The position numbers and the translations under genes are program-made. Of a stretch of DNA of 20,866 bases, positions 13 to 11,622 are shown piece after piece (the first letter of the stretch is position 1; every line of letters begins with the position of its first letter). The notes under the pieces are model-generated. The model was not told where the DNA came from. It worked only from the letters and a program-made list of their open reading frames with translations, and ran no database searches. The stretch comes from an uncultured bacterium (GTDB taxonomy: Bacteria; Fidelibacterota; Marinisomatia; Marinisomatales; TCS56): contig CAZIJQ010000042.1 in NCBI GenBank assembly GCA_964539785.1, positions 1 through 20,866 on the forward strand. Direction: 5' to 3'.

Positions 13-2112
13 TTATTTCAACAATACCATTTTACCGGTTTTCTGAAAATTACCCGCCTGCAGACGATAAAAATAGACACCGCTGGTTACTGCATTACCC
101 GTGGCGTCAGTGGCATCCCAGATAATGGAATGAGTGCCGGCGTGCTGATCTTTACTTACTAGATTGTTAACCATTCGGCCATGCAAATTAAATATTGAAA
201 GATTCACATTTGCGTTGACCGGTAGATCGTATTTGATTGTTGTAGTAGGATTGAATGGGTTGGGATAATTGGGGTGCAAGGCAAATTCTACCGGAATAAT
301 ACAGCAGATATCAGAATCAACCGCCACTGTTGATTCATAGACCGGGAATGTCAGCTCCGTTGACCAGGGTACGCTGATGTCATCTGCTATTGTCATCGTC
401 AGCTCCGCCTGCTGACTGATGGGATAATCCGGAAACACAGCAAATGCCAGTGCGGCCATTACAGTGAGCTCCTCTTCCGGATCAAGTGAAATCAGAGAAT
501 GACTGCTGTCCAGCAGGGTAATATATGGATCATCCGAACTTAATGTTATTGTGACCGGGTTAGATAGAAGTGAGCCCGAGTTTGTCAGGGAAATATCCAA
601 TTCGACCTGTTCACCCTGATTGATCAGATTATTCGAATTACCCTGGCTTAAGCCATTGGAATCATCATCAATTCCAGCTCCGATCAGATTTACCATAACC
701 AATGGATCCAGACCGATTTCGATATTGGTCCAGACTGAATCGACAACGACATTTGTCAGCGTATCGCCACTGTATCCGTCAGCTTGAATCTCGAGCGTAA
801 AACTGCCCTGGGAGGTGAAGCGGTTAAAGCGACCAAATTCTGCTTCTGTCAATCTGGGGCTCATCCCAGGATCCCAGTATTCAACGATTTTCACTTGGGC
901 AACAATTGGTGTATCATCCAAATTTGAGGTGACGTGTCCGCGAATGCCAGGTCCTTCAAAACTGCGCTCCAGGACGTACATGGCACCCCCCAAATTATCG
1001 GCTGCCACCTGCTGGGCTGTAGTAAACTCCGGTACAAATTCAACCCCGGTCTCAACCAGCATTTCGAACACTCCGGCTTTCTCATAAGCCCAGTAATAAC
1101 TCATGGGCGCTTCTTCCCAACTGGCACCCGTGGTATAAGTACCCGTACCATCCTGTTGTGGCAAGCGCACTGCCATCTGCTGGGCAAAATCGTCGATCAG
1201 AGCAGTTTCGCTGGTGGTGTGGCCATTGATGCCACTTTTATAATAAATAATTTCACCATAGGAATGGTAAGTGATCCCGGCAATGGGGCGCAGGTATTCG
1301 ATTAACTGTTTTTTGGCGACCACTTCAGATTCGGAGAATCGATAAGGGCCCTTATATACCCAACTGTATGGAAGAGAAGATCCGGAAGTTGAAGTTTCCC
1401 AGGCTGAATCATAATTGCGATTCAAATCCACTCCATCATAGTCGAAATCAAAATCACCATTTTCGTTGTTATCACGTTGATTTTTTCTCCACCAGGGAGA
1501 ATCGGCGGTTTCTTCGATAAAATATTTATATCCGTCAGGATTCAAAATCGGCACTATCCAAATTTCCAGTTCATTCACCAATCGCGCCACATTTGTATCA
1601 AGAATAAAATTGTTCAGCAGATTTTCCATTAACACCAGACAACTCATCATTCCCATGGGTTCCCGGGCATGGTGCACCCCATCTATCCAGACCACTGTTT
1701 CATCTTCCCTTTCTGTCGGATTATCTGAAATTTTCATTCCGTATATGGGATAATGATAATTAGTACTTACACCAATCTGCACAACTTCAGTTATTTCCGG
1801 GAAATATGAATGATAAGCATTCATTGCGAGGTTTACCTCTTCGTAGCTCTGGTAATCTGGAACATACCGGTTTGAAAGCTGTCGGATCACCTGATGTTGT
1901 ACTCCGGATTGCACTAGTTTATCAATAGTAGCCTGATCAGCGACTATCTCGACCCGGTCTCCCAAACCTTCATTCACTGCATCCAGGTTAAGATCATTGA
2001 TTAAAGTATGGGTACTGCGAGCGTCCGCCATAATTTCAACAATATAATAATCGGCGGCTACAACCAACTGGATCAACAGTAAAAACACAATTATTTTCGT
2101 GAATGTCTTCAA
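13..2112 (-). CDS. Secreted M14-family zinc carboxypeptidase with C-terminal T9SS (Por) sorting domain
   Basis: 699-aa ORF. N-terminal signal peptide (MKTFTKIIVFLLLIQLVVA). M14 zinc-binding signature HxxE in WIDGVHHAREPMG, with downstream YHSYG. The last ~80 aa (PNPFNPTTTIKYDLP...GVYFYRLQAGNFQKTGKMVLLK) match the type IX secretion C-terminal domain pattern. Confidence 0.85.
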   Translation of the reverse strand: MKTFTKIIVFLLLIQLVVAADYYIVEIMADARSTHTLINDLNLDAVNEGLGDRVEIVADQATIDKLVQSGVQHQVIRQLSNRYVPDYQSYEEVNLAMNAYHSYFPEITEVVQIGVSTNYHYPIYGMKISDNPTEREDETVVWIDGVHHAREPMGMMSCLVLMENLLNNFILDTNVARLVNELEIWIVPILNPDGYKYFIEETADSPWWRKNQRDNNENGDFDFDYDGVDLNRNYDSAWETSTSGSSLPYSWVYKGPYRFSESEVVAKKQLIEYLRPIAGITYHSYGEIIYYKSGINGHTTSETALIDDFAQQMAVRLPQQDGTGTYTTGASWEEAPMSYYWAYEKAGVFEMLVETGVEFVPEFTTAQQVAADNLGGAMYVLERSFEGPGIRGHVTSNLDDTPIVAQVKIVEYWDPGMSPRLTEAEFGRFNRFTSQGSFTLEIQADGYSGDTLTNVVVDSVWTNIEIGLDPLVMVNLIGAGIDDDSNGLSQGNSNNLINQGEQVELDISLTNSGSLLSNPVTITLSSDDPYITLLDSSHSLISLDPEEELTVMAALAFAVFPDYPISQQAELTMTIADDISVPWSTELTFPVYESTVAVDSDICCIIPVEFALHPNYPNPFNPTTTIKYDLPVNANVNLSIFNLHGRMVNNLVSKDQHAGTHSIIWDATDATGNAVTSGVYFYRLQAGNFQKTGKMVLLK

Positions 2113-3045: not shown

Positions 3046-3315
3046 TTATTTTAAAGCCACCTCATCCACCACCCCAACAATGATCGACCGGATTGGCCCC
3101 ATAGGGTCGTCCACTACCTGGCGGGCGGAATTGCCTTCGTCGATCACCAGCACCGTTTCACCAGCGCCGCTGTCGGTCCAATCTACCGCAATTAAATAAT
3201 CTCCGGTTGGTTTGCCGTTCAGTCCCAGTTTGTCTACCACCAGTAGCCGGCGGTTCTCATAAAATTTATGATTTATAGTAGAATGGATCGTTCCGCAGAC
3301 GCGCCCCAGAATCAT
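3046..3315 (-). CDS. BMC vertex protein (BMC-P, EutN/CcmL/PduN family)
   Basis: 89 aa with an MILGRVCGTIHST...GAGETVLVIDEGNSARQVV pattern typical of Pfam EutN_CcmL. 4-nt start/stop overlap with the upstream BMC-P gene. Confidence 0.85.
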   Translation of the reverse strand: MILGRVCGTIHSTINHKFYENRRLLVVDKLGLNGKPTGDYLIAVDWTDSGAGETVLVIDEGNSARQVVDDPMGPIRSIIVGVVDEVALK

Positions 3316-3596
3316 TGCTCCTCCCCATCGTAAAGCTGTACATCGTCAACGATGCCCACCACGGCATGATCCACCGGCACGAACCAGGGGTCCATGAGTA
3401 GAGCGGCCTCGCGGCTGCTTTCATAATACACCAGTTCGCCCGGTCCTGCCATGCGGGTGCTATCGGCAGCGATCACCGGTGATTTGACCGGCTGCTGGTA
3501 TTTATCCAGCGGTTGCATCACCAGCATGGGGACACCTTCCAGTCCGTCATAAACCACGGACGGGGTCAGTGTGCCGATAATTCGACCTAACTTCAT
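3312..3596 (-). CDS. BMC vertex protein (BMC-P, EutN/CcmL/PduN family)
   Basis: 94 aa, MKLGRIIGTLTPSVV...AGPGELVYYESSREAALL. 4-nt overlaps with both neighbouring genes, consistent with translational coupling. Confidence 0.85.
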   Translation of the reverse strand: MKLGRIIGTLTPSVVYDGLEGVPMLVMQPLDKYQQPVKSPVIAADSTRMAGPGELVYYESSREAALLMDPWFVPVDHAVVGIVDDVQLYDGEEQ

Positions 3597-4393
3597 TCGC
3601 CCTCCGATAGTTTATCAAGGTTGGCACGACCGAAATAAGTGGTAGCATCCACCTGGGCCGCCATCTCCGGATGCAGGTTGGGGATGATTGTCTCCCGCAG
3701 CCAATTCTCAGTGCTGGTACAGGCCTCTCGAGCAATTCGCACCGCCGCTTCCACTTCGTGCAGATCACCATTAAAAATCGTGAATGCCTTGCCACCGATA
3801 TCATCCGCCAGACGAATTTCAACAATATTGACTTCGGCTCCTTTAACGCCCGCATCGGCTGAACGAAGAGTAGCCGCCACGGTAAAGGTCTCACAAATAC
3901 CCAGTGCCCGCGGTTCACATTTGCGGCGCTGACCCAAGACAGAATCGTGAACCTGATCGTGAACCACCGGCAGGATTACCGAATCCACTACTTGAGTGCC
4001 TCCGACTTGCAATCCCTCAGCATAAGCCTCTTCCACAGCGCCGACGCTGCCGCCGATCAACACTAAATATTTACCGTTGTGCACCGTTCCCGATTTGATC
4101 ACTGCGATTGGCGCCCGCTTGATCATGGCATCGCCGCATAGAATACCAATAGTGACGCTGGAATACTCTATCAGGGCAATGGCCGGGTAGCGGGTGTCAG
4201 ATATCCTGGATCTGGGATCGGGAACTGTGGGCTGGGGATCAGGCTTTGAAGGTTGAGGCTCAATCTTTTCAACAAAATTTTCCAGTCCGTCGTCTTTAGC
4301 TGTTGGTTCTTCCAACACCATTGACTCAGAAGTCTTTTTCTGGGCCGCCTTTTGTCGTCGCAATTCTCCGGGGGTTGGTTTCTTTTCACTCAT
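3593..4393 (-). CDS. Tandem BMC-domain shell protein (BMC-T, PduT-like arrangement) with ~65-aa disordered K/P/E/Q-rich N-terminal extension
   Basis: Two canonical-order BMC domains (AIALIEYSSVTIGILCGDAMIKRAP... and ALGICETFTVAATLRSADAGVKGAEV...). They are preceded by MSEKKPTPGELRRQKAAQKK...PQPSKPDPQPTVPDP, a low-complexity segment. Confidence 0.8.
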   Translation of the reverse strand: MSEKKPTPGELRRQKAAQKKTSESMVLEEPTAKDDGLENFVEKIEPQPSKPDPQPTVPDPRSRISDTRYPAIALIEYSSVTIGILCGDAMIKRAPIAVIKSGTVHNGKYLVLIGGSVGAVEEAYAEGLQVGGTQVVDSVILPVVHDQVHDSVLGQRRKCEPRALGICETFTVAATLRSADAGVKGAEVNIVEIRLADDIGGKAFTIFNGDLHEVEAAVRIAREACTSTENWLRETIIPNLHPEMAAQVDATTYFGRANLDKLSEGE

Positions 4394-4420: not shown

Positions 4421-5866
4421 TCAAACAATTCTGAAATGATCCACCAGAACGCAGCGCCGTTCCCGGGAAAAACTCAGGGGATTGGTGATGCCTTCGCCGG
4501 TGGGACTGGCAATCGAGAATGAACAGTAGCCTTCGCCTTCGTAACCCAGCCCAGCGAGAGATGGACCATTCTTGACAAAAACACTGCAGTTCATCACTCG
4601 CGCCATTCGACTCAGGTTATCCAGATTACGGGAATGCATCATGGCCGTGTGACCGAAACCGTGTTCCGCTTCCTTGGCCAGATCGATGGCCTGGTTGGCA
4701 TCAGGTACGATCACGAAGGGAATCACCGGCATCATCTGCTCGGTCCATACCAGGGGATGGTTGGCATCCACCGGTGCTATGGCCAGGCGGATGTGCTCAT
4801 CGACCTTAAGACCGATCTTCGCCAGAATTTCCTGAACGTTCTTCCCAATCATGTCCTTGTTCATAACCGCCGGTTGGCGGGGACCACGATTTTCGCTGAA
4901 AATCACCGATTCCAATTCCTTAACCTGGTGCTCTTTCAGCACATAGGCATCGTAGCGCAGCAAGGCCGATAAAAGTTGCGGGGCCACTGCTTCCACAACA
5001 ATAATTTCTTTTTCCAGGATGCAGATCAGGTTATTGTCCATGGAAGCACCCTTAACAATACTGCGGGCTGCCTTTTCAATATCGGCAGTCTCGTCCACCA
5101 CCACCGGGGGATTCCCCGGTCCGGCGCAGACGGCGCGCTTACCGCTGGTCATTGCGGCTTTCACCACCGCAGCGCCTCCAGTTACTACCAGCAGGCGCAC
5201 ACCGGGATGCTGCATCAATTCCTGGGCACTGGCGACGGTGGGTTGAGCGATGGTCGTTACCAGATTGGGTGGTCCGCCAGCGTCAACAATGGCGGCATTC
5301 AGCAATTCAACATTGTAAACCGAAACATTCTTGGCCGTGGGATGGACATTGAAAACTGCTGCATTCCCGGCTGCTACCATCCCAATTGTATTACAGATGA
5401 TAGTGGAAGTAGGGTTGGTGCAAGGCGTAATTGAACCGATCACCCCGTAGGGCGCCAACTCCATCAGCGTTAAACCATGATCACCGGTCTTGGCCCAAGG
5501 TTTGAGTATTTCGGTCCCCGGTGTTTTATCGATCACCAACCGGTTTTTTTCAATCTTGTCAGCTACCCGCCCCAGACCGGTTTCGTCATAGGCCCGTTGG
5601 GCCAGGTCTTCGCTGTGCTCGGTCATCACCCGTCGGATCGAGGCGATAATATCATCCCGCTTGGACAGAGACAGGGCATTTAACTGATCAAAGGCTTTAG
5701 CTGCCGCCGCCACTGCCAGATCGATGGTAGGGAAAATCCCCATTCCACCAGCGGCTACAGTGCTCCCGGATTGCTCCAGTACTCCCGATGCAACAGGTGT
5801 TTGGGTCACCCGCTTCACCAGCCGGGCGGCAATTTGCTCAACCTGTTCCTGGGTTAATTGTGCCAT
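4421..5866 (-). CDS. CoA-acylating aldehyde dehydrogenase (PduP/EutE family) with N-terminal encapsulation-peptide-like helix
   Basis: Aldehyde dehydrogenase fold with the catalytic Cys region NNLICILEKE. Preferred start is the ATG at 5866 (MAQLTQEQVEQIAARLVKRV...), which has AAAGGA 8 nt upstream. The ORF-track start at 5905 would lie inside a hairpin repeat. The N-terminal amphipathic helix plus G/S/T-rich linker is typical of BMC cargo. Confidence 0.85.
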   Translation of the reverse strand: MAQLTQEQVEQIAARLVKRVTQTPVASGVLEQSGSTVAAGGMGIFPTIDLAVAAAAKAFDQLNALSLSKRDDIIASIRRVMTEHSEDLAQRAYDETGLGRVADKIEKNRLVIDKTPGTEILKPWAKTGDHGLTLMELAPYGVIGSITPCTNPTSTIICNTIGMVAAGNAAVFNVHPTAKNVSVYNVELLNAAIVDAGGPPNLVTTIAQPTVASAQELMQHPGVRLLVVTGGAAVVKAAMTSGKRAVCAGPGNPPVVVDETADIEKAARSIVKGASMDNNLICILEKEIIVVEAVAPQLLSALLRYDAYVLKEHQVKELESVIFSENRGPRQPAVMNKDMIGKNVQEILAKIGLKVDEHIRLAIAPVDANHPLVWTEQMMPVIPFVIVPDANQAIDLAKEAEHGFGHTAMMHSRNLDNLSRMARVMNCSVFVKNGPSLAGLGYEGEGYCSFSIASPTGEGITNPLSFSRERRCVLVDHFRIV

Positions 5867-5913
5867 AATATGTCCTTTAGCCAGGGGATTAGTTACCGTG
5901 TACATCCAATCAT

Positions 5914-5994: not shown

Positions 5995-6294
5995 CTAATC
6001 GTTCACGCCTTTTTTGTAGCGGATTTTTCCGTCTACTTCCCAGTTGTCAACGATGGCCATAACCACAGCATCGCAGGGACGCTTGTCGGTCATTACCGTC
6101 TGCCGGGCGGAACTTCCGCTGGCATAGAGAACCATTTCACCCACTCCTGCCTGGACAGCATCAGCGGCGACAACAAAGCCGCCGCTGGGTTTACCATCCA
6201 TGTCAATATTCTGGAGCAGCAGAAATTTGAGGCCCTCCAAGCTCTGTTCTTTTTGTGTGGCTACCAGGGTACCCACTACTTGTGCCAGAACCAT
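5995..6294 (-). CDS. BMC vertex protein (BMC-P, EutN/CcmL/PduN family)
   Basis: 99 aa, [16 protein letters not shown]...[18 protein letters not shown]. Third BMC-P paralog in the locus. Confidence 0.85.
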
Positions 6295-6305: not shown

Positions 6306-6614
6306 CTAATCCTCGGTCATTTTGGCTTTGGGCTTGTCACCGCGACCGATAGGCATTACCAGGTCCACATTACTGTGGGGACGGGCAATTACATGAACGG
6401 CAACGATTTCGCCTACGCGGGCGGCACCGGCTTTACCGGCATCGCAGGCAGCCTTTACAGCGGCCACATCACCGCGGACGATCGCTGAAACATAACCGCC
6501 ACCGGTCTTTTCATAAGATACTAGCTCGACTTTGGCCGCTTTGACCATGGCGTCGGCGGCTTCCACTACTGCCGGGAAACTGCGCGTTTCGATCATTCCA
6601 AGTGCTTCTGCCAT
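6306..6614 (-). CDS. BMC hexamer shell protein (BMC-H, PduA/EutM/CcmK-like)
   Basis: 102 aa. [56 protein letters not shown] is a near-consensus single BMC domain. It has a short Lys-rich C-terminal tail ([13 protein letters not shown]). Confidence 0.9.
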
Positions 6615-6746: not shown

Positions 6747-7373
6747 TTATTTTTTATCTTTCTCAACCCCGGTGATTTCTTCAATGCATTTTACGGCGGC
6801 GCGCCAGCCTACATCAATATCCCTTTCGGCTCCGCCCAGATACACACGGCCGAAGCTGCCGAAAGTTCGTACTTCCAAAATATTGATTTCGGCAGCTTTT
6901 TCCGCTTCATTGGCCGCCAAGGCGGCATAAGCAGCGGGCTGGACCTCCATAACGAACATGGTTTCGCCGGGAACAATCATATTACCGTGGCGCATGCGGT
7001 TAATCAACTGGGTCTGGTGATCATCGATGTGGCGAATCACCTGCTGAGAATAAATTTTTGGCTTCCAACGCTTCTCCTCCTTCAAATCCAACGCATCCAG
7101 AATAGCCTGTCCAGCCTGGCGCACATCGGCCTGGGATTCGGAATGAATTTCCAGCATTCCGAACAACCGTTCCACGATCTGCATCCCTGGAGTAACATTA
7201 GTAGATTTCAAGGCGATGTCGGTGATCCGGTTGATTTCGATCCCTGGGGAAATTTCAACATACAATGAAGCCATCCCGGCGATTGGTAAAAAACCCTTAG
7301 CCACTGTGCCGAGAAAGGCGGCGTACTGGGGTTGAAGATTATCCAGAAAACAATAAGCGCGTAAATCGACCAC
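6747..7373 (-). CDS. Tandem BMC-domain shell protein (BMC-T, PduT-like)
   Basis: 208 aa. Two BMC-like halves: [24 protein letters not shown]... and [29 protein letters not shown].... Domain order appears canonical (non-permuted). Assignment rests on the motif pattern only. Confidence 0.7.
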
Positions 7374-7390: not shown

Positions 7391-8800
7391 TTAATTCGAA
7401 ATTGTTGTTTCTTGGGCACCTTTAACGATCCCAATACTGGCGCTGGCACCAATCCGGGTAGCCCCGGCTTCAACCATCTTGCGGGCATCGTCATACGATC
7501 TGATACCACCGGCGGCTTTCACGCCCAATCCCGCTCCTTGGACAACCCGGCTCATGAGAGCCACATCTTCGGCAGTAGCACCACCAGGACCAAAACCGGT
7601 GGACGTTTTAACATAATTAGCGCGAGCTTTTTTTGACAGCTCGCAAGCCCTAACTTTTTCGTCGTCGGTTAACAAAGCTGCTTCGATAATAACTTTACTG
7701 GTGGCGCTGCCGTCTTCGCAGGCCTCACAGACTGATCGGATATCCCGGTAAACTAAGTCATCTTTGCCACTTTTCAGAGCGCCGATATTGATCACCATAT
7801 CGATTTCTTTCGCACCATCGCGGATCGCCTGGCGGGTCTCCATGGCCTTGATCTCCGGTGAATGGGCTCCGGAAGGAAAGCCCACCACGGTGCAGACTTT
7901 CACATCGGAACCGTCCAGTTCTTTGGCTGCTAGCCTCACATAACTGGGACTAATACATACCGTGGCAAAATGGAAGTCCCGAGCTTCACCACAAAGCTTT
8001 TTGATATCGGCATCGGTGGCATCGGGCTTCAAAACGGTGTGATCAATGCAACGGGCAATATCCTCCGGAACGTTTTCGCAGCCGGTACCGTTGTGGTAGC
8101 CGACCCGCTCCACACCAAAATCCATGAATTTGCGTACGGCATCGGGCTGTTGGACCATCTGCTTGCCGCGGATATAATCGGCTTCCAGCGGCTGGGGTAC
8201 GCCAGTGGGCGACAGGGTGATTCCAGCTTTTGCCAAGATTTTCTCGACTTCATCGGTGATTCGTACCAGATCCGATTCGGAGATTCCGGTTTCAACAACC
8301 GAGACCGGTGGTGCCGATTGCGGCGCTGAAAATTCGATGTCAGGTTGCTGTTCGATATCAGTAATCATTTGTACCCGTCGCAAATGCCGCTCGGCGGTAC
8401 ATTCACTGGTAATAAAAGTTTCCACAATTTGTTGCGCCAGTGCGGCACCAATCAGTCCGGCACCCAGTGTCAGAACCCGGGCATCGTTGTGTTCGCGGGC
8501 GTTTTTGGCGGTTGATACATCATAGCACAGAGCTGCCCGAATGCCCAACACCTTGTTGGCGGTCATGGCGGAACCAATTCCGGCCCCATCTACCATTACA
8601 CCAAAATCGGCCTCACCAGCAGCGACTTTGCGGGCTACGGCCAGGGCGAACTCGGGATAATCCACAGCAGCGGTGCCATCGGTGCCACAGTCAATTATCG
8701 TACTACCACAACCGGAAAGAAATTCTTTCAATTGGTTTTTCAAGCCATATCCACCGTGATCGGCGCCAATGGCTATTTTCAAGTTTTTTATGTCTTTCAT
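7391..8800 (-). CDS. Fusion protein: RpiB/LacAB-family sugar-phosphate isomerase (aa 1-150) + deoxyribose-phosphate aldolase DeoC/DERA (aa ~230-469)
   Basis: N-terminal [14 protein letters not shown]...[30 protein letters not shown] aligns residue-by-residue with E. coli RpiB. C-terminal [13 protein letters not shown] and the Schiff-base lysine motif [14 protein letters not shown] are DERA signatures. The two are joined by a Pro-rich linker containing an amphipathic helix. Confidence 0.85.
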
Positions 8801-8825: not shown

Positions 8826-9773
8826 TTAACCATTTAACAGCAATTTATTCGCGACAAATTCATCCGTAATAAGCGTATTGAAAAATTTACCCTGTAGTCC
8901 GGCGCGGATTGCTGCCAGCTTACGCTGACCACCAGCCACCGCGATTGATCGGGATTTTTTAGCCAGCTCTGTCAGATCTATTCCGATTGTACGCCGGTCC
9001 AGATCGGAAGAACAAATTTTCCCTTTACCATCGATAATCCGTGAACAAATATCGCCCACAGCCCCCCGTTTCAGCAAATCATTAACTTCATTATTTTCAA
9101 AATAATCTGCCCGTACCAGGACTGAATCCATGCCGAAAGAGCCAATGGTGAAAAAGGCTACCTGGGCCGAGCGGGCCAATTGTAGCGTTCGAGCAATATT
9201 TTTATCGGATACAATCGCTGCCTTAACTGCCGGGCTGTCAACGATGGCGGGTAATGGCAGCAGATAAGGAATGGCCCCGCATTTCTCACCAATGGTCTTG
9301 GCTATTTCACTGGCGTGGGTGTCATATTCGGCCCGTGATATACCGCCGTTCAGCTGTACTACCGTCATGTCCTTAAATTTTTTAGCCTGCACCTGGCCTG
9401 CCAAAGCCTGCATGGTGGTACCCCAGGATACACCAAGGGTCAGGCCATCTTCCAGCAGGTCATTCAGCAGTGATACCGCTGCCTGTCCCAGACGGCGCTG
9501 TACCAACCAGTAGTTACCGTCATCCGGAACGACAATGACTTGCTTGAGCTTGTATTTTTTTTGCAGCTGTGCTTCCAGACGCGTACCGGCAGCTTGGGGA
9601 TCTTTGATTTTTATACTGACAATGCCCTGCTGGCGGGCCGCCTGGAGCAGTCGCGAGACGCCGGGTCGGGAGACTGACATTTTGCGGGCAATATCCTGTT
9701 GGCTGAGCCCATGTTCATAATACAGCCGGGCAGCCTCCACCAACTGGGAAATTCGTTCTGAGTCAGTCAACAT
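8826..9773 (-). CDS. SorC/DeoR(Bacillus-type)/CggR family sugar-phosphate-responsive transcriptional regulator
   Basis: 315 aa. N-terminal HTH (LYYEHGLSQQDIARKMSVSRPGVSRLLQAARQQGIV) is followed by a SorC-type sugar-binding domain. It is the first gene of the BMC operon, 25 nt upstream of the RpiB-DERA gene. Confidence 0.85.
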   Translation of the reverse strand: MLTDSERISQLVEAARLYYEHGLSQQDIARKMSVSRPGVSRLLQAARQQGIVSIKIKDPQAAGTRLEAQLQKKYKLKQVIVVPDDGNYWLVQRRLGQAAVSLLNDLLEDGLTLGVSWGTTMQALAGQVQAKKFKDMTVVQLNGGISRAEYDTHASEIAKTIGEKCGAIPYLLPLPAIVDSPAVKAAIVSDKNIARTLQLARSAQVAFFTIGSFGMDSVLVRADYFENNEVNDLLKRGAVGDICSRIIDGKGKICSSDLDRRTIGIDLTELAKKSRSIAVAGGQRKLAAIRAGLQGKFFNTLITDEFVANKLLLNG

Positions 9774-10278: not shown

Positions 10279-11622
10279 TTAAACCAAATTTTTGACCCGA
10301 TCCACCAGAGCCTGGGCTTGGGCCTGATCCGGGGCTTCAGCATAGATGCGCATGATCGGTTCAGTGTTGGATTTACGCAGATGAACCCAGCTGTCTTTCC
10401 AGGTGAACTTAACGCCATCGATTGTATTGACATCAGCCCGGGAAAATTCCCGCCGCACAGCAGCCAGGGATTGATCGACATCCACACCTTCCAGGCTGAC
10501 CTTATCTTTCACCATCACAAATTGCGGTAACGTTGCCACAATAGCACTTAGCGGTTTCATGGATTGTGCCATGCGATTCAGCACCATGGCGGCTCCCACC
10601 AGCGAATCGCGACACAGATGAGCGGCCATCAAAATGACACCGCCGTTGCCCTCACCGCCCAGTGGGGCATCCAGGGTTTGCATCAACTGAACCACATTAA
10701 TTTCACCTACGGCCGAGCGAACAACTTTGGTACCATATCGGTCAGCCAGCTTGTCTAATGCCATAGTGGTGGACAGATTCACTACAATTGGTTCAGGTTT
10801 ACCAGTGGTTTTCCAGTAGCCATCCACGGCCAGAACCAGAGTGTTTTCCTCACCCAGCGGCATCCCCTTTTCTGATACAATCGCTAAACGGTCCGCATCG
10901 GGATCCACTGCAAAACCGGCGTCGGATCCAGTTTGGGTCACGACATCACCCAAGTCCCGCAGATTTTCCGGTAGTGGCTCCGTACCCCGCAAAAATTTCC
11001 CAGATGGTTCGCAATACAGCGGTACCACTTCACAGTTCAGCGCCCTCAACATAGCTGGCAGAGCTTCGGCACCGGCGCCATTAACAGCATCGATGGCAAT
11101 TTTAAATTTTCGCTGTTTAATAGCCGCCACATCGATACAATCCAATGACAGAATGTGGTCTATGTGTTTTTCAATTGCGTCTTTCTGGGTAGTGCGCTGT
11201 CCGGCTTCTGCGATATGAATTGTATCGCAACCGGCATCTACATGATCGAACAATTGTCGACATTCGTCCGGCAGAAAAAAAGTGCCATCGACCCGGACAA
11301 ATTTCAAGCCGTTCCACTCGATAGGATTATGGCTGGCGGTCACAATGATTCCGCCTACTGCAGTGGATTGCTCGACAACAAACTGGACCGTGGGTGTTGG
11401 GACGATTCCGCAATCGACTACATCTCTCCCGAAGGCAGTTAATTCTTCGGCAATGGCGTTTGTGAGCGTTACGCCAGAAGGACGGCTGTCGCGCCCCAGC
11501 ACAATTTCGCCAAAAGGCAACATATCATTGACAGCACGAGCATAAACCTGGACAATGGCAGGTGTCAAGTGACTGGCGACCAATCCCCTAACACCGGAAA
11601 TACTGCGAATCAACATTGACAA
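10279..11622 (-). CDS. alpha-D-phosphohexomutase superfamily enzyme (PGM/PMM family); candidate phosphopentomutase, GlmM not excluded
   Basis: 447 aa. Phosphoserine loop GIIVTASHNP, metal-binding loop FAVDPDADR, sugar loop GEENTL and phosphate-binding RKSNTEP are all present. Immediately upstream of the SPU-type BMC operon. Confidence 0.8.
   Translation of the reverse strand: MSMLIRSISGVRGLVASHLTPAIVQVYARAVNDMLPFGEIVLGRDSRPSGVTLTNAIAEELTAFGRDVVDCGIVPTPTVQFVVEQSTAVGGIIVTASHNPIEWNGLKFVRVDGTFFLPDECRQLFDHVDAGCDTIHIAEAGQRTTQKDAIEKHIDHILSLDCIDVAAIKQRKFKIAIDAVNGAGAEALPAMLRALNCEVVPLYCEPSGKFLRGTEPLPENLRDLGDVVTQTGSDAGFAVDPDADRLAIVSEKGMPLGEENTLVLAVDGYWKTTGKPEPIVVNLSTTMALDKLADRYGTKVVRSAVGEINVVQLMQTLDAPLGGEGNGGVILMAAHLCRDSLVGAAMVLNRMAQSMKPLSAIVATLPQFVMVKDKVSLEGVDVDQSLAAVRREFSRADVNTIDGVKFTWKDSWVHLRKSNTEPIMRIYAEAPDQAQAQALVDRVKNLV

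Follow-up and report, generated by a model that had tools for sequence, protein, structure and literature searches.

Bacterial microcompartments (BMCs) of the sugar phosphate-utilizing (SPU) type rank with the most widespread organelles of bacteria, and their presumed role is the recycling of deoxyribose from DNA. A fusion of an aldolase with an isomerase was noted in Marinimicrobia as early as 2014 by Axen et al. (PMC4207490), and in 2024 Dwyer, Sutter, and Kerfeld described a chimera of ribose-5-phosphate isomerase (RPI) and deoxyribose-5-phosphate aldolase (DERA) in 20 loci of the SPU3 subtype (PMC11585597). In their account the chimera lacks the N-terminal encapsulation peptide (EP) of RPI, a helix inside the enzyme is proposed as its likely EP, and Cys66 is replaced by Asp in all SPU RPIs. 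Here we analyze an RPI-DERA fusion encoded in a 20,866-nucleotide stretch of DNA from an uncultured bacterium (contig CAZIJQ010000042.1; hereafter the window). The initial annotation of this DNA implied that the fusion, its EP-like internal helix, and the Cys-to-Asp change were new, but all of these elements are in the literature of 2014 to 2024, and the protein is a typical representative of a family already described. We consider it highly probable that its DERA domain is catalytically active as the signature enzyme of a microcompartment, that the internal helix is a single EP co-packaging both domains at 1:1, and that the RpiB-like domain is non-canonical.

The fusion is encoded by a single open reading frame (ORF) of 469 amino acids plus stop at positions 7391-8800. 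The frame is uninterrupted, as first described, and its strand is to be given as minus; a plus-strand reading of the same positions is ruled out, its translation being riddled with stops. RPI (PF02502) is N-terminal and DERA (PF01791) is C-terminal in the polypeptide, with Pfam matches to LacAB_rpiB at residues 9-146 (E 1e-48) and to DeoC at residues 251-459 (E 8e-20). The NCBIfam models agree (deoC TIGR00126, 279.6 bits versus a cut-off of 117.3; rpiB TIGR01120, 145.5 bits versus 138.65). The motifs quoted in the initial annotation were all found (VDGAGIG at residues 70-76, nt 8573-8593; GIRAALCYD at 86-94; KTSTGF at 398-403), and its reading of RpiB and DERA in one polypeptide fits the published family. 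The parts of the gene are as follows.

7391..8800, minus strand: RPI(RpiB-like)-DERA fusion ORF (Pfam and NCBIfam; identical protein on at least 24 contigs)
8351..8779, minus strand: RpiB-like domain, residues 8-150, with no N-terminal EP (profiles and alignments; AlphaFold2 per-residue confidence, pLDDT, mostly 80-96)
8588..8590, minus strand: codon of Asp71, at the position of the catalytic Cys66 of Escherichia coli RpiB (gapless alignments)
8285..8347, minus strand: linker 1, residues 152-172, Pro/Ser/Ala-rich (majority fraction 0.24; pLDDT <50, predicted disordered)
8228..8284, minus strand: amphipathic helix, residues 173-191, putative EP (hydrophobic moment, model, and conservation)
8168..8227, minus strand: linker 2, residues 192-211, poorly conserved (majority fraction 0.44); in most relatives a Cys-rich module, lost in this clade, occupies this stretch and the residues just after it
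8063..8167, minus strand: residues 212-246, the conserved C-terminal portion of the N-terminal extension typical of BMC-type DERAs (majority fraction 0.73)
7415..8062, minus strand: DERA catalytic core, residues 247-462 (best PDB match 8qps, E 7e-80)

A Pro-rich linker of about 80 amino acids had been placed between the two domains. Its start is indeed Pro-rich, but the region spans about 95 amino acids (152-246), and the last 35 or so (212-246) are not a free linker. Microcompartment-associated DERAs have an N-terminal extension, of which these residues are a conserved part; they are matched in stand-alone BMC-type DERAs, and have low pLDDT in the model of the window protein. The same architecture, PF02502 followed by PF01791 in one ORF, is seen in the SPU3 chimeras (e.g., Verrucomicrobia bacterium ADurb.Bin018; PMC11585597) and in the Marinimicrobia fusion of Axen et al., and the SPU3 chimeras share with the window protein the absence of the RPI N-terminal EP, an inter-domain helix proposed as EP, and Asp at the Cys66 position. 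The window protein is of the longer, Marinimicrobia-type form (469 amino acids) that keeps residues 212-246, whereas short forms of 424-431 amino acids in Acidobacteria, Opitutales, and Lentisphaerae lack them.

The fusion is widely distributed. Independent JGI and ENA metagenomes contain the identical 469-amino acid protein on at least 24 contigs (46 collection blocks), and full-length fusions form more than 120 clusters at the 90% identity level, with identities of 62-98%. The closest named relatives are metagenome-assembled genomes of Candidatus (Neo)marinimicrobiota and the FCB group (64-68% identity). Among reference genomes, fused genes are present in at least eight phyla, with carriers in Neomarinimicrobiota, Krumholzibacteriota, Planctomycetes, Elusimicrobia, Acidobacteriota, Opitutales, Lentisphaerae, and others, and 12 of the 13 fused genes have shell genes within 10 kb. 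A survey of these reference loci, proposed in the initial annotation, shows that both forms occur, RPI and DERA being separate neighboring genes in many SPU loci (22 of the 80 loci); the two are repeatedly fused or adjacent across phyla. The adjoining separate genes are the kind of arrangement that an assembly or sequencing artifact (a frameshift or a lost stop) could have joined, but we found no support for such an event, and the recurrence of the identical protein on independent contigs, together with the many fusion clusters and phyla, rules it out; this includes the homopolymer frameshift that had earlier been named as a possible refutation, and we regard an artifact as next to impossible. 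RPI fusions account for 5 of the 150 top representatives at the 50% identity level, and many other long matches fuse DERA to other domains.

The survey also yielded six loci of Acidobacteriota/Bryobacterales (L034, L043, L046, L048, L063, and L066) in which an RPI with Asp at the Cys66 position adjoins an extended DERA bearing a Cys-rich module (see below). BLAST with the window shell proteins found no shell genes within 10 kb of these, a form of detection that is perhaps too insensitive, and they may otherwise be satellite loci. In L043, L046, and L066, another motif (…IVTPSARDLA…GV…I) replaces the usual EP helix upstream of the RPI domain.

Residues D334 (in EIDMV), K398 (in KTSTGF), and K428 (in GVKAAGG) of the DERA domain are invariant in 58 sequences, and from their places within conserved motifs we take them to be the equivalents of E. 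coli D102, K167, and K201. A D/K/K active-site triad is named for SPU DERA in PMC11585597. In the mechanism we propose, the DERA domain would be the signature enzyme of the compartment and would make acetaldehyde, which the co-encoded CoA-acylating aldehyde dehydrogenase (AldDH) would convert to acetyl-CoA inside the shell. In SPU-type microcompartments, stand-alone DERAs have an N-terminal extension in which an amphipathic EP helix is followed by a variable linker and then by a pre-core element that is conserved. Fusion of an RpiB-like protein ahead of such an extension would have turned the DERA EP helix (173-191) internal, with loss of the EP of the RPI itself. One helix would then co-package both domains at a fixed 1:1 ratio, through either shell binding or aggregation of the cargo core.

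The EP-like amphipathic helix proposed in the initial annotation is real, with a correction to its coordinates (residues 176-193 correspond to nt 8222-8275, not 8222-8278). Its hydrophobic moment of 0.673 (14-amino acid window) is the second highest in the protein and was reached in 30 of 5,000 shuffles, and AlphaFold2 models a helix at 175-191 with a block-mean pLDDT of ~63-72 and flanks below 50; the segment is neither predicted to be disordered nor non-amphipathic, either of which had been put forward as grounds for abandoning the idea. Conservation, expressed as the mean majority fraction, is 0.24 for residues 152-172, 0.56 for 173-191, 0.44 for 192-211, and 0.73 for 212-246. Within the helix, D177 and I181 never vary, and a hydrophobic residue is always found at positions 173, 178, 181, 185, 188, and 189. 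The motif L-S/T-x-x-D/Q-Φ-x-x-I-A/T-x-x-Φ is common to the fusion helix, the N terminus of the operon AldDH, and the N termini of stand-alone SPU RPIs and DERAs. The AldDH EP-like helix, LTQEQVEQIAARLVKRV (nt 5804-5857), has a moment of 0.697 and the spacing of the fusion helix. When a profile of the fusion helix was run over the six frames of the window, the AldDH helix ranked 4th of 20,763 positions; this is weak support, as the profile was built from distant fusions and is crude (pseudocount artifacts), and a chance out-of-frame match scored near the true helix.

Stand-alone SPU DERAs have an amphipathic N-terminal helix (e.g., LVEIITREVL), and stand-alone SPU RPIs have one of their own (e.g., SDADIQAIIRRVVEQL), whereas DERAs outside microcompartment loci (e.g., Streptococcus) have no extension and start about 10 residues before the core. 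The fusion helix thus has the attributes by which EPs are recognized, namely an amphipathic helix of ~15-20 residues, poorly conserved flexible linkers, and presence on BMC homologues with absence outside BMC loci. It departs from them in location, being internal (173-191 of 469) and N-terminal only relative to the DERA module. There is no hidden N-terminal EP before the fusion start; the frame is closed by a stop 21 nt before the ATG and there is no alternative start codon, which rules out an EP upstream of the annotated start. The N-terminal EPs of PduP and PduD resemble the window helix in being short and amphipathic, with a poorly conserved linker, and in being absent outside microcompartments, but they are terminal whereas the window helix is internal; we claim no sequence homology with them, and PduP and PduD sequences were included in the hydrophobic-moment comparison.

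The initial annotation remarked that an internal EP would be unusual. This is so in general, but the internal helix is conserved throughout the fusion family, and for the archaeal compartments of Hodarchaeales a 2025 preprint (PMC12747264) describes a Flav+DERA fusion, places EPs 'as linkers between two domains', and demonstrates by experiment that recruitment depends on the EP. These archaeal proteins and bacterial flavoprotein-like fusions are similar to the window protein in having an SPU-type DERA with an extra N-terminal domain, but the partner is flavoprotein-like (PF02441), not RpiB-like, and in three of the four flavoprotein-like fusions examined (P0126, P0130, and P0133) the EP-like helix precedes the extra domain, at the extreme N terminus. 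DERAs with the BMC-type pre-core element are fused to PF02441 in P0126, P0130, P0133, and P0141, an arrangement that matches the Flav+DERA of the preprint, and we also observed fusions to a PNP_UDP_1 purine/uridine-phosphorylase-family domain (P0171) and to a PfkB sugar kinase (P0223).

We infer a targeting function for helix 173-191 as a putative EP, and three points weigh against the interpretation of the fusion that we propose. First, by position the helix belongs to the N-terminal extension of DERA itself, turned internal by the fusion, but its sequence resembles the N-terminal EPs of stand-alone RPIs at least as much as those of Chloroflexi DERAs, and its origin (DERA or RPI) is therefore assigned by position only. 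Second, AlphaFold2 confidence in the helix is moderate (pLDDT ~63-72) and residues 197-247 are of low confidence (<50), with a predicted template-modeling score (pTM) of 0.47, so that the published packing of this region on DERA is not confirmed here. Third, the DERA and RPI activity data stem from a Chloroflexi SPU6 pair, not from the window protein (PMC11585597).

The helix could also be chiefly a self-association or core-condensation element, or dock RPI against DERA, with recruitment to the shell proceeding via the AldDH peptide or other contacts. EPs are reported to aggregate or condense cargo as well as to bind shells, and the motif held in common with the AldDH EP would permit helix-helix association; since published EPs do both, however, condensation is compatible with the targeting role that we favor. 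Moreover, in the AlphaFold2 model the helix sits between disordered linkers without confident packing against either of the two domains, and a docking role is needless in domains that are already tethered by fusion. We view this explanation as possible but doubtful.

The RpiB-like domain has the same fold as E. coli and M. tuberculosis RpiB, with 37-42% identity to them. In gapless alignments Asp71 coincides with the catalytic Cys of Clostridium thermocellum RpiB (3he8) and with Cys66 of E. coli RpiB, as the initial annotation had it and in agreement with the published Cys66-to-Asp change; Ala73 aligns with E. coli Thr68, and Ser77 with the catalytic Glu75 of M. tuberculosis RpiB. (The range aligned to E. 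coli RpiB agrees with PDB 2vvr.) There is consequently neither Cys nor Glu at the catalytic position, which was the check proposed, and a M. tuberculosis-type catalytic Glu is ruled out. Compared with E. coli RpiB/AlsB and the C. thermocellum and M. tuberculosis enzymes, the fold and the substrate- and phosphate-binding residues are as expected of a functional RpiB, but the known catalytic bases (Cys66 or Glu75) are absent, and the Thr68/Ser71 proton shuttle is lost to Ala73.

These substitutions are characteristic of the family. Asp occupies the Cys66 position in 56 of 58 fusions, and also in all 35 RPIs that are linked to DERA, by fusion or as neighboring genes, in reference genomes from many phyla; Ala occupies the Thr68 position in 57 of the 58 fusions. 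The equivalents of Asp9, His10, His99, Asn100, Arg133, His134, and Arg137 are all kept, and are invariant in the 58 fusions. Ten pocket positions (D14, H15, D71, A73, S77, H104, N105, R138, H139, and R142) are identical in 33 of the 35 DERA-linked RPIs, whose overall identity to the window domain is 46-68%, and the DGAGIGS signature is strictly conserved rather than randomly decayed. Most likely the domain is non-canonical and not an ordinary ribose-5-phosphate (R5P) isomerase, and, because the pocket is invariant, it has most likely retained the ability to bind a sugar phosphate. The initial annotation had argued that an acid at or near the Cys site can sustain isomerase chemistry, an argument weakened by Ser77, by Ala73, and by the negligible R5P activity of the SPU6 homologue (see below).

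A LacA/LacB-type heteromer is ruled out, in that the window has a single RpiB-like region and neither the LacA nor the LacB model reaches its cut-off (LacA HMM, 109 bits versus 164). We sought a second RpiB/LacAB-like gene in the 20,866-nt window and found none. LacA also has an Asp in the catalytic-base region according to PMC11585597, but LacA pairs with a Cys-bearing LacB, and the window contains no such partner gene.

The Chloroflexi SPU6 DERA and RPI share with the window protein the D/K/K triad, the helix extension of DERA, and Asp for Cys66 in RPI, and they associate in a 1:1 DERA:RPI complex. They are the products of separate genes, however, and both carry an N-terminal EP. The stand-alone SPU6 RPI has negligible R5P isomerase activity, and Dwyer et al., who compared RPI with the M. 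tuberculosis Glu enzyme and with LacA, proposed that it is a packaging factor (PMC11585597). By extension, the RpiB-like domain could be a catalytically dead pseudo-enzyme and packaging scaffold only, which is the view preferred in that paper for the stand-alone RPI. The replacement of the Cys66 and Thr68 equivalents and the lack of a M. tuberculosis-type Glu are in keeping with this, as is the absence of an obvious metabolic tie between R5P isomerization and DERA (PMC11585597). However, the fused RPI has lost its own EP and cannot act as an EP-bearing adaptor, and the purifying selection seen in the ten pocket positions, and in Asp71 above all, is unexpected for a scaffold; the invariance of the pocket across phyla argues against a merely dead one. 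We therefore think a dead scaffold rather unlikely.

Alternatively, the domain may be active in another role, as an isomerase of another sugar phosphate with Asp71 as the base, or as a deoxyribose-5-phosphate binding or ring-opening module feeding DERA. The invariant pocket includes the phosphate-binding Arg/His/Arg positions and the equivalent of His99, a residue proposed to help furanose ring opening in RpiB enzymes. The intact DGAGIGS signature and the repeated fusion or adjacency of RPI and DERA across phyla point the same way. Against it, DERA kinetics in the SPU6 system were no better in the complex, SPU5 loci lack RPI altogether (PMC11585597), and the lost Thr/Ser proton shuttle speaks against ordinary aldose-ketose isomerization. 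This proposal is tentative, and we consider a ligand-binding or alternative catalytic role to be about as likely as a dead scaffold, each holding a minor share of the probability. A more specific and somewhat more speculative proposal is that the Asp71/Ala73 domain constitutes a distinct functional subfamily, neither dead scaffold nor R5P isomerase, that handles a compartment substrate and is coupled to DERA. Possible roles would include capture and ring opening of deoxyribose-5-phosphate, or isomerization of an unrecognized sugar phosphate. Such roles would fall to an RpiB-like domain that, in the interpretation we favor, is non-canonical and would be packaged with an active DERA through one internal helix.

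Between the helix and the conserved pre-core element, most relatives of the window protein, both fusions and stand-alone BMC-type DERAs, carry a module of three or four Cys residues. Its form is C-x5-C-x-C-x2-C in Marinimicrobia-type fusions and C-x2-C-x3-C-x3-C or C-x2-C-x2-C in stand-alone and flavoprotein-fused DERAs, with HC..DMVCxCGVCVEK, CPGCxxRCxQxC, and CxxCGxC (with another Cys before it) as examples; the Chloroflexi SPU6 DERA extension bears a motif of the C-x3-C-x4-C-x3-C type. At least three Cys are present in 56 of 102 extended DERA representatives, versus 3 of 48 plain ones, and the spacing looks as if it could suit a Zn or Fe-S site. In PMC11585597, neither zinc nor the cysteines turned up in a term search of the main text, which gives the region only as two low-confidence beta strands. 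In contrast to most of its Marinimicrobia-type relatives, the window protein is without the module; its clade (P0001-P0004 and P0006-P0008; P0005 is not included) has no module Cys at all, and fewer than three are present in 40 of the 119 closest fusions. The loss of the Cys module in this clade and the pocket invariance are small additions to the known picture.

The fusion is part of a one-strand gene series transcribed in the order mutase, SorC regulator, fusion, BMC-Tdp, BMC-H, BMC-P, AldDH, BMC-Ts, BMC-P, and BMC-P. The genes accompanying the fusion are the following.

10279..11622, minus strand: PGM/PMM-family phosphosugar mutase, syntenic with the operon (TIGR03990, archaeal-type GlmM, 475 bits versus a cut-off of 439)
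8826..9773, minus strand: SorC/DeoR-type sugar-binding regulator, directly upstream of the fusion (Pfam; syntenic in relatives)
6747..7373, minus strand: CcmP-like double-stacking tandem shell protein, BMC-Tdp (E 2e-80 to CcmP 5lsr)
6306..6614, minus strand: BMC-H hexamer shell protein (Pfam)
5995..6294, minus strand: BMC-P pentamer shell protein, first of three (Pfam)
4421..5905, minus strand: CoA-acylating AldDH with the EP-like N-terminal helix LTQEQVEQIAARLVKRV (NF011927, 646 bits versus a cut-off of 403; PF00171)
3593..4393, minus strand: BMC-Ts, a tandem shell protein of the PduT-like kind, extended by ~70 amino acids at its N terminus (Pfam)
3312..3596, minus strand: BMC-P, second of three (Pfam)
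3046..3315, minus strand: BMC-P, third of three (Pfam)

The gene order is kept around an 82%-identical homologue, with different outer flanks. The locus has the hallmarks of an SPU microcompartment (DERA beside shell genes, an acylating AldDH, and BMC-H with at least one BMC-T and a BMC-P triplet), as well as those of SPU3 (RPI and DERA in one polypeptide, and a CcmP-like BMC-Tdp). CcmP-like BMC-Tdp proteins are reported for SPU2 and SPU3 (PMC11585597), and the SPU3 loci resemble the window in combining one with a BMC-P triplet. The locus matches an SPU3-type sugar phosphate-utilizing microcompartment, with the subtype assigned from gene content only. The mutase could be a phosphopentomutase supplying deoxyribose-5-phosphate, and the SorC-type regulator could be its sensor.

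The EP of AldDH lies at the C terminus in SPU6, but at the N terminus in the window operon. The AldDH start is ambiguous (5866-5905, minus strand), with 494 amino acids in the longest ORF versus 481 in the ENA record, which begins at Met14 (MAQLTQEQVEQIAARLVKRV…); the ENA start would place the EP helix right at the N terminus. The extension of the 266-amino acid BMC-Ts protein (nt 4184-4393, minus strand) is Lys/Pro/Glu-rich and probably disordered, MSEKKPTPGELRRQKAAQKKTSES…PQPSKPDPQPTVPDP…, and is absent from PduT structures; it recalls the DNA-binding tails, rich in K/R, that have been described for pentamers of archaeal SPU-type compartments (PMC12747264). We also note that the operon flank at 13-2112 (minus strand) encodes an M14 peptidase with a FlgD-Ig and Por_Secre_tail (type IX secretion) C-terminal domain, which fits an FCB-superphylum, Marinimicrobia-like host.

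The window adds a further marine, Marinimicrobia-like instance to the described family. The fused RPI-DERA would be a natural case of one helix packaging two domains at fixed stoichiometry, and as such a template for engineered compartments. If the RpiB-like domains do form a functional subfamily, then RPI-DERA coupling would have reached its most derived state in a fusion served by a single internal EP common to both domains. The invariance of the pocket across phyla makes the role of this Cys-less RpiB-like partner worth experiment.

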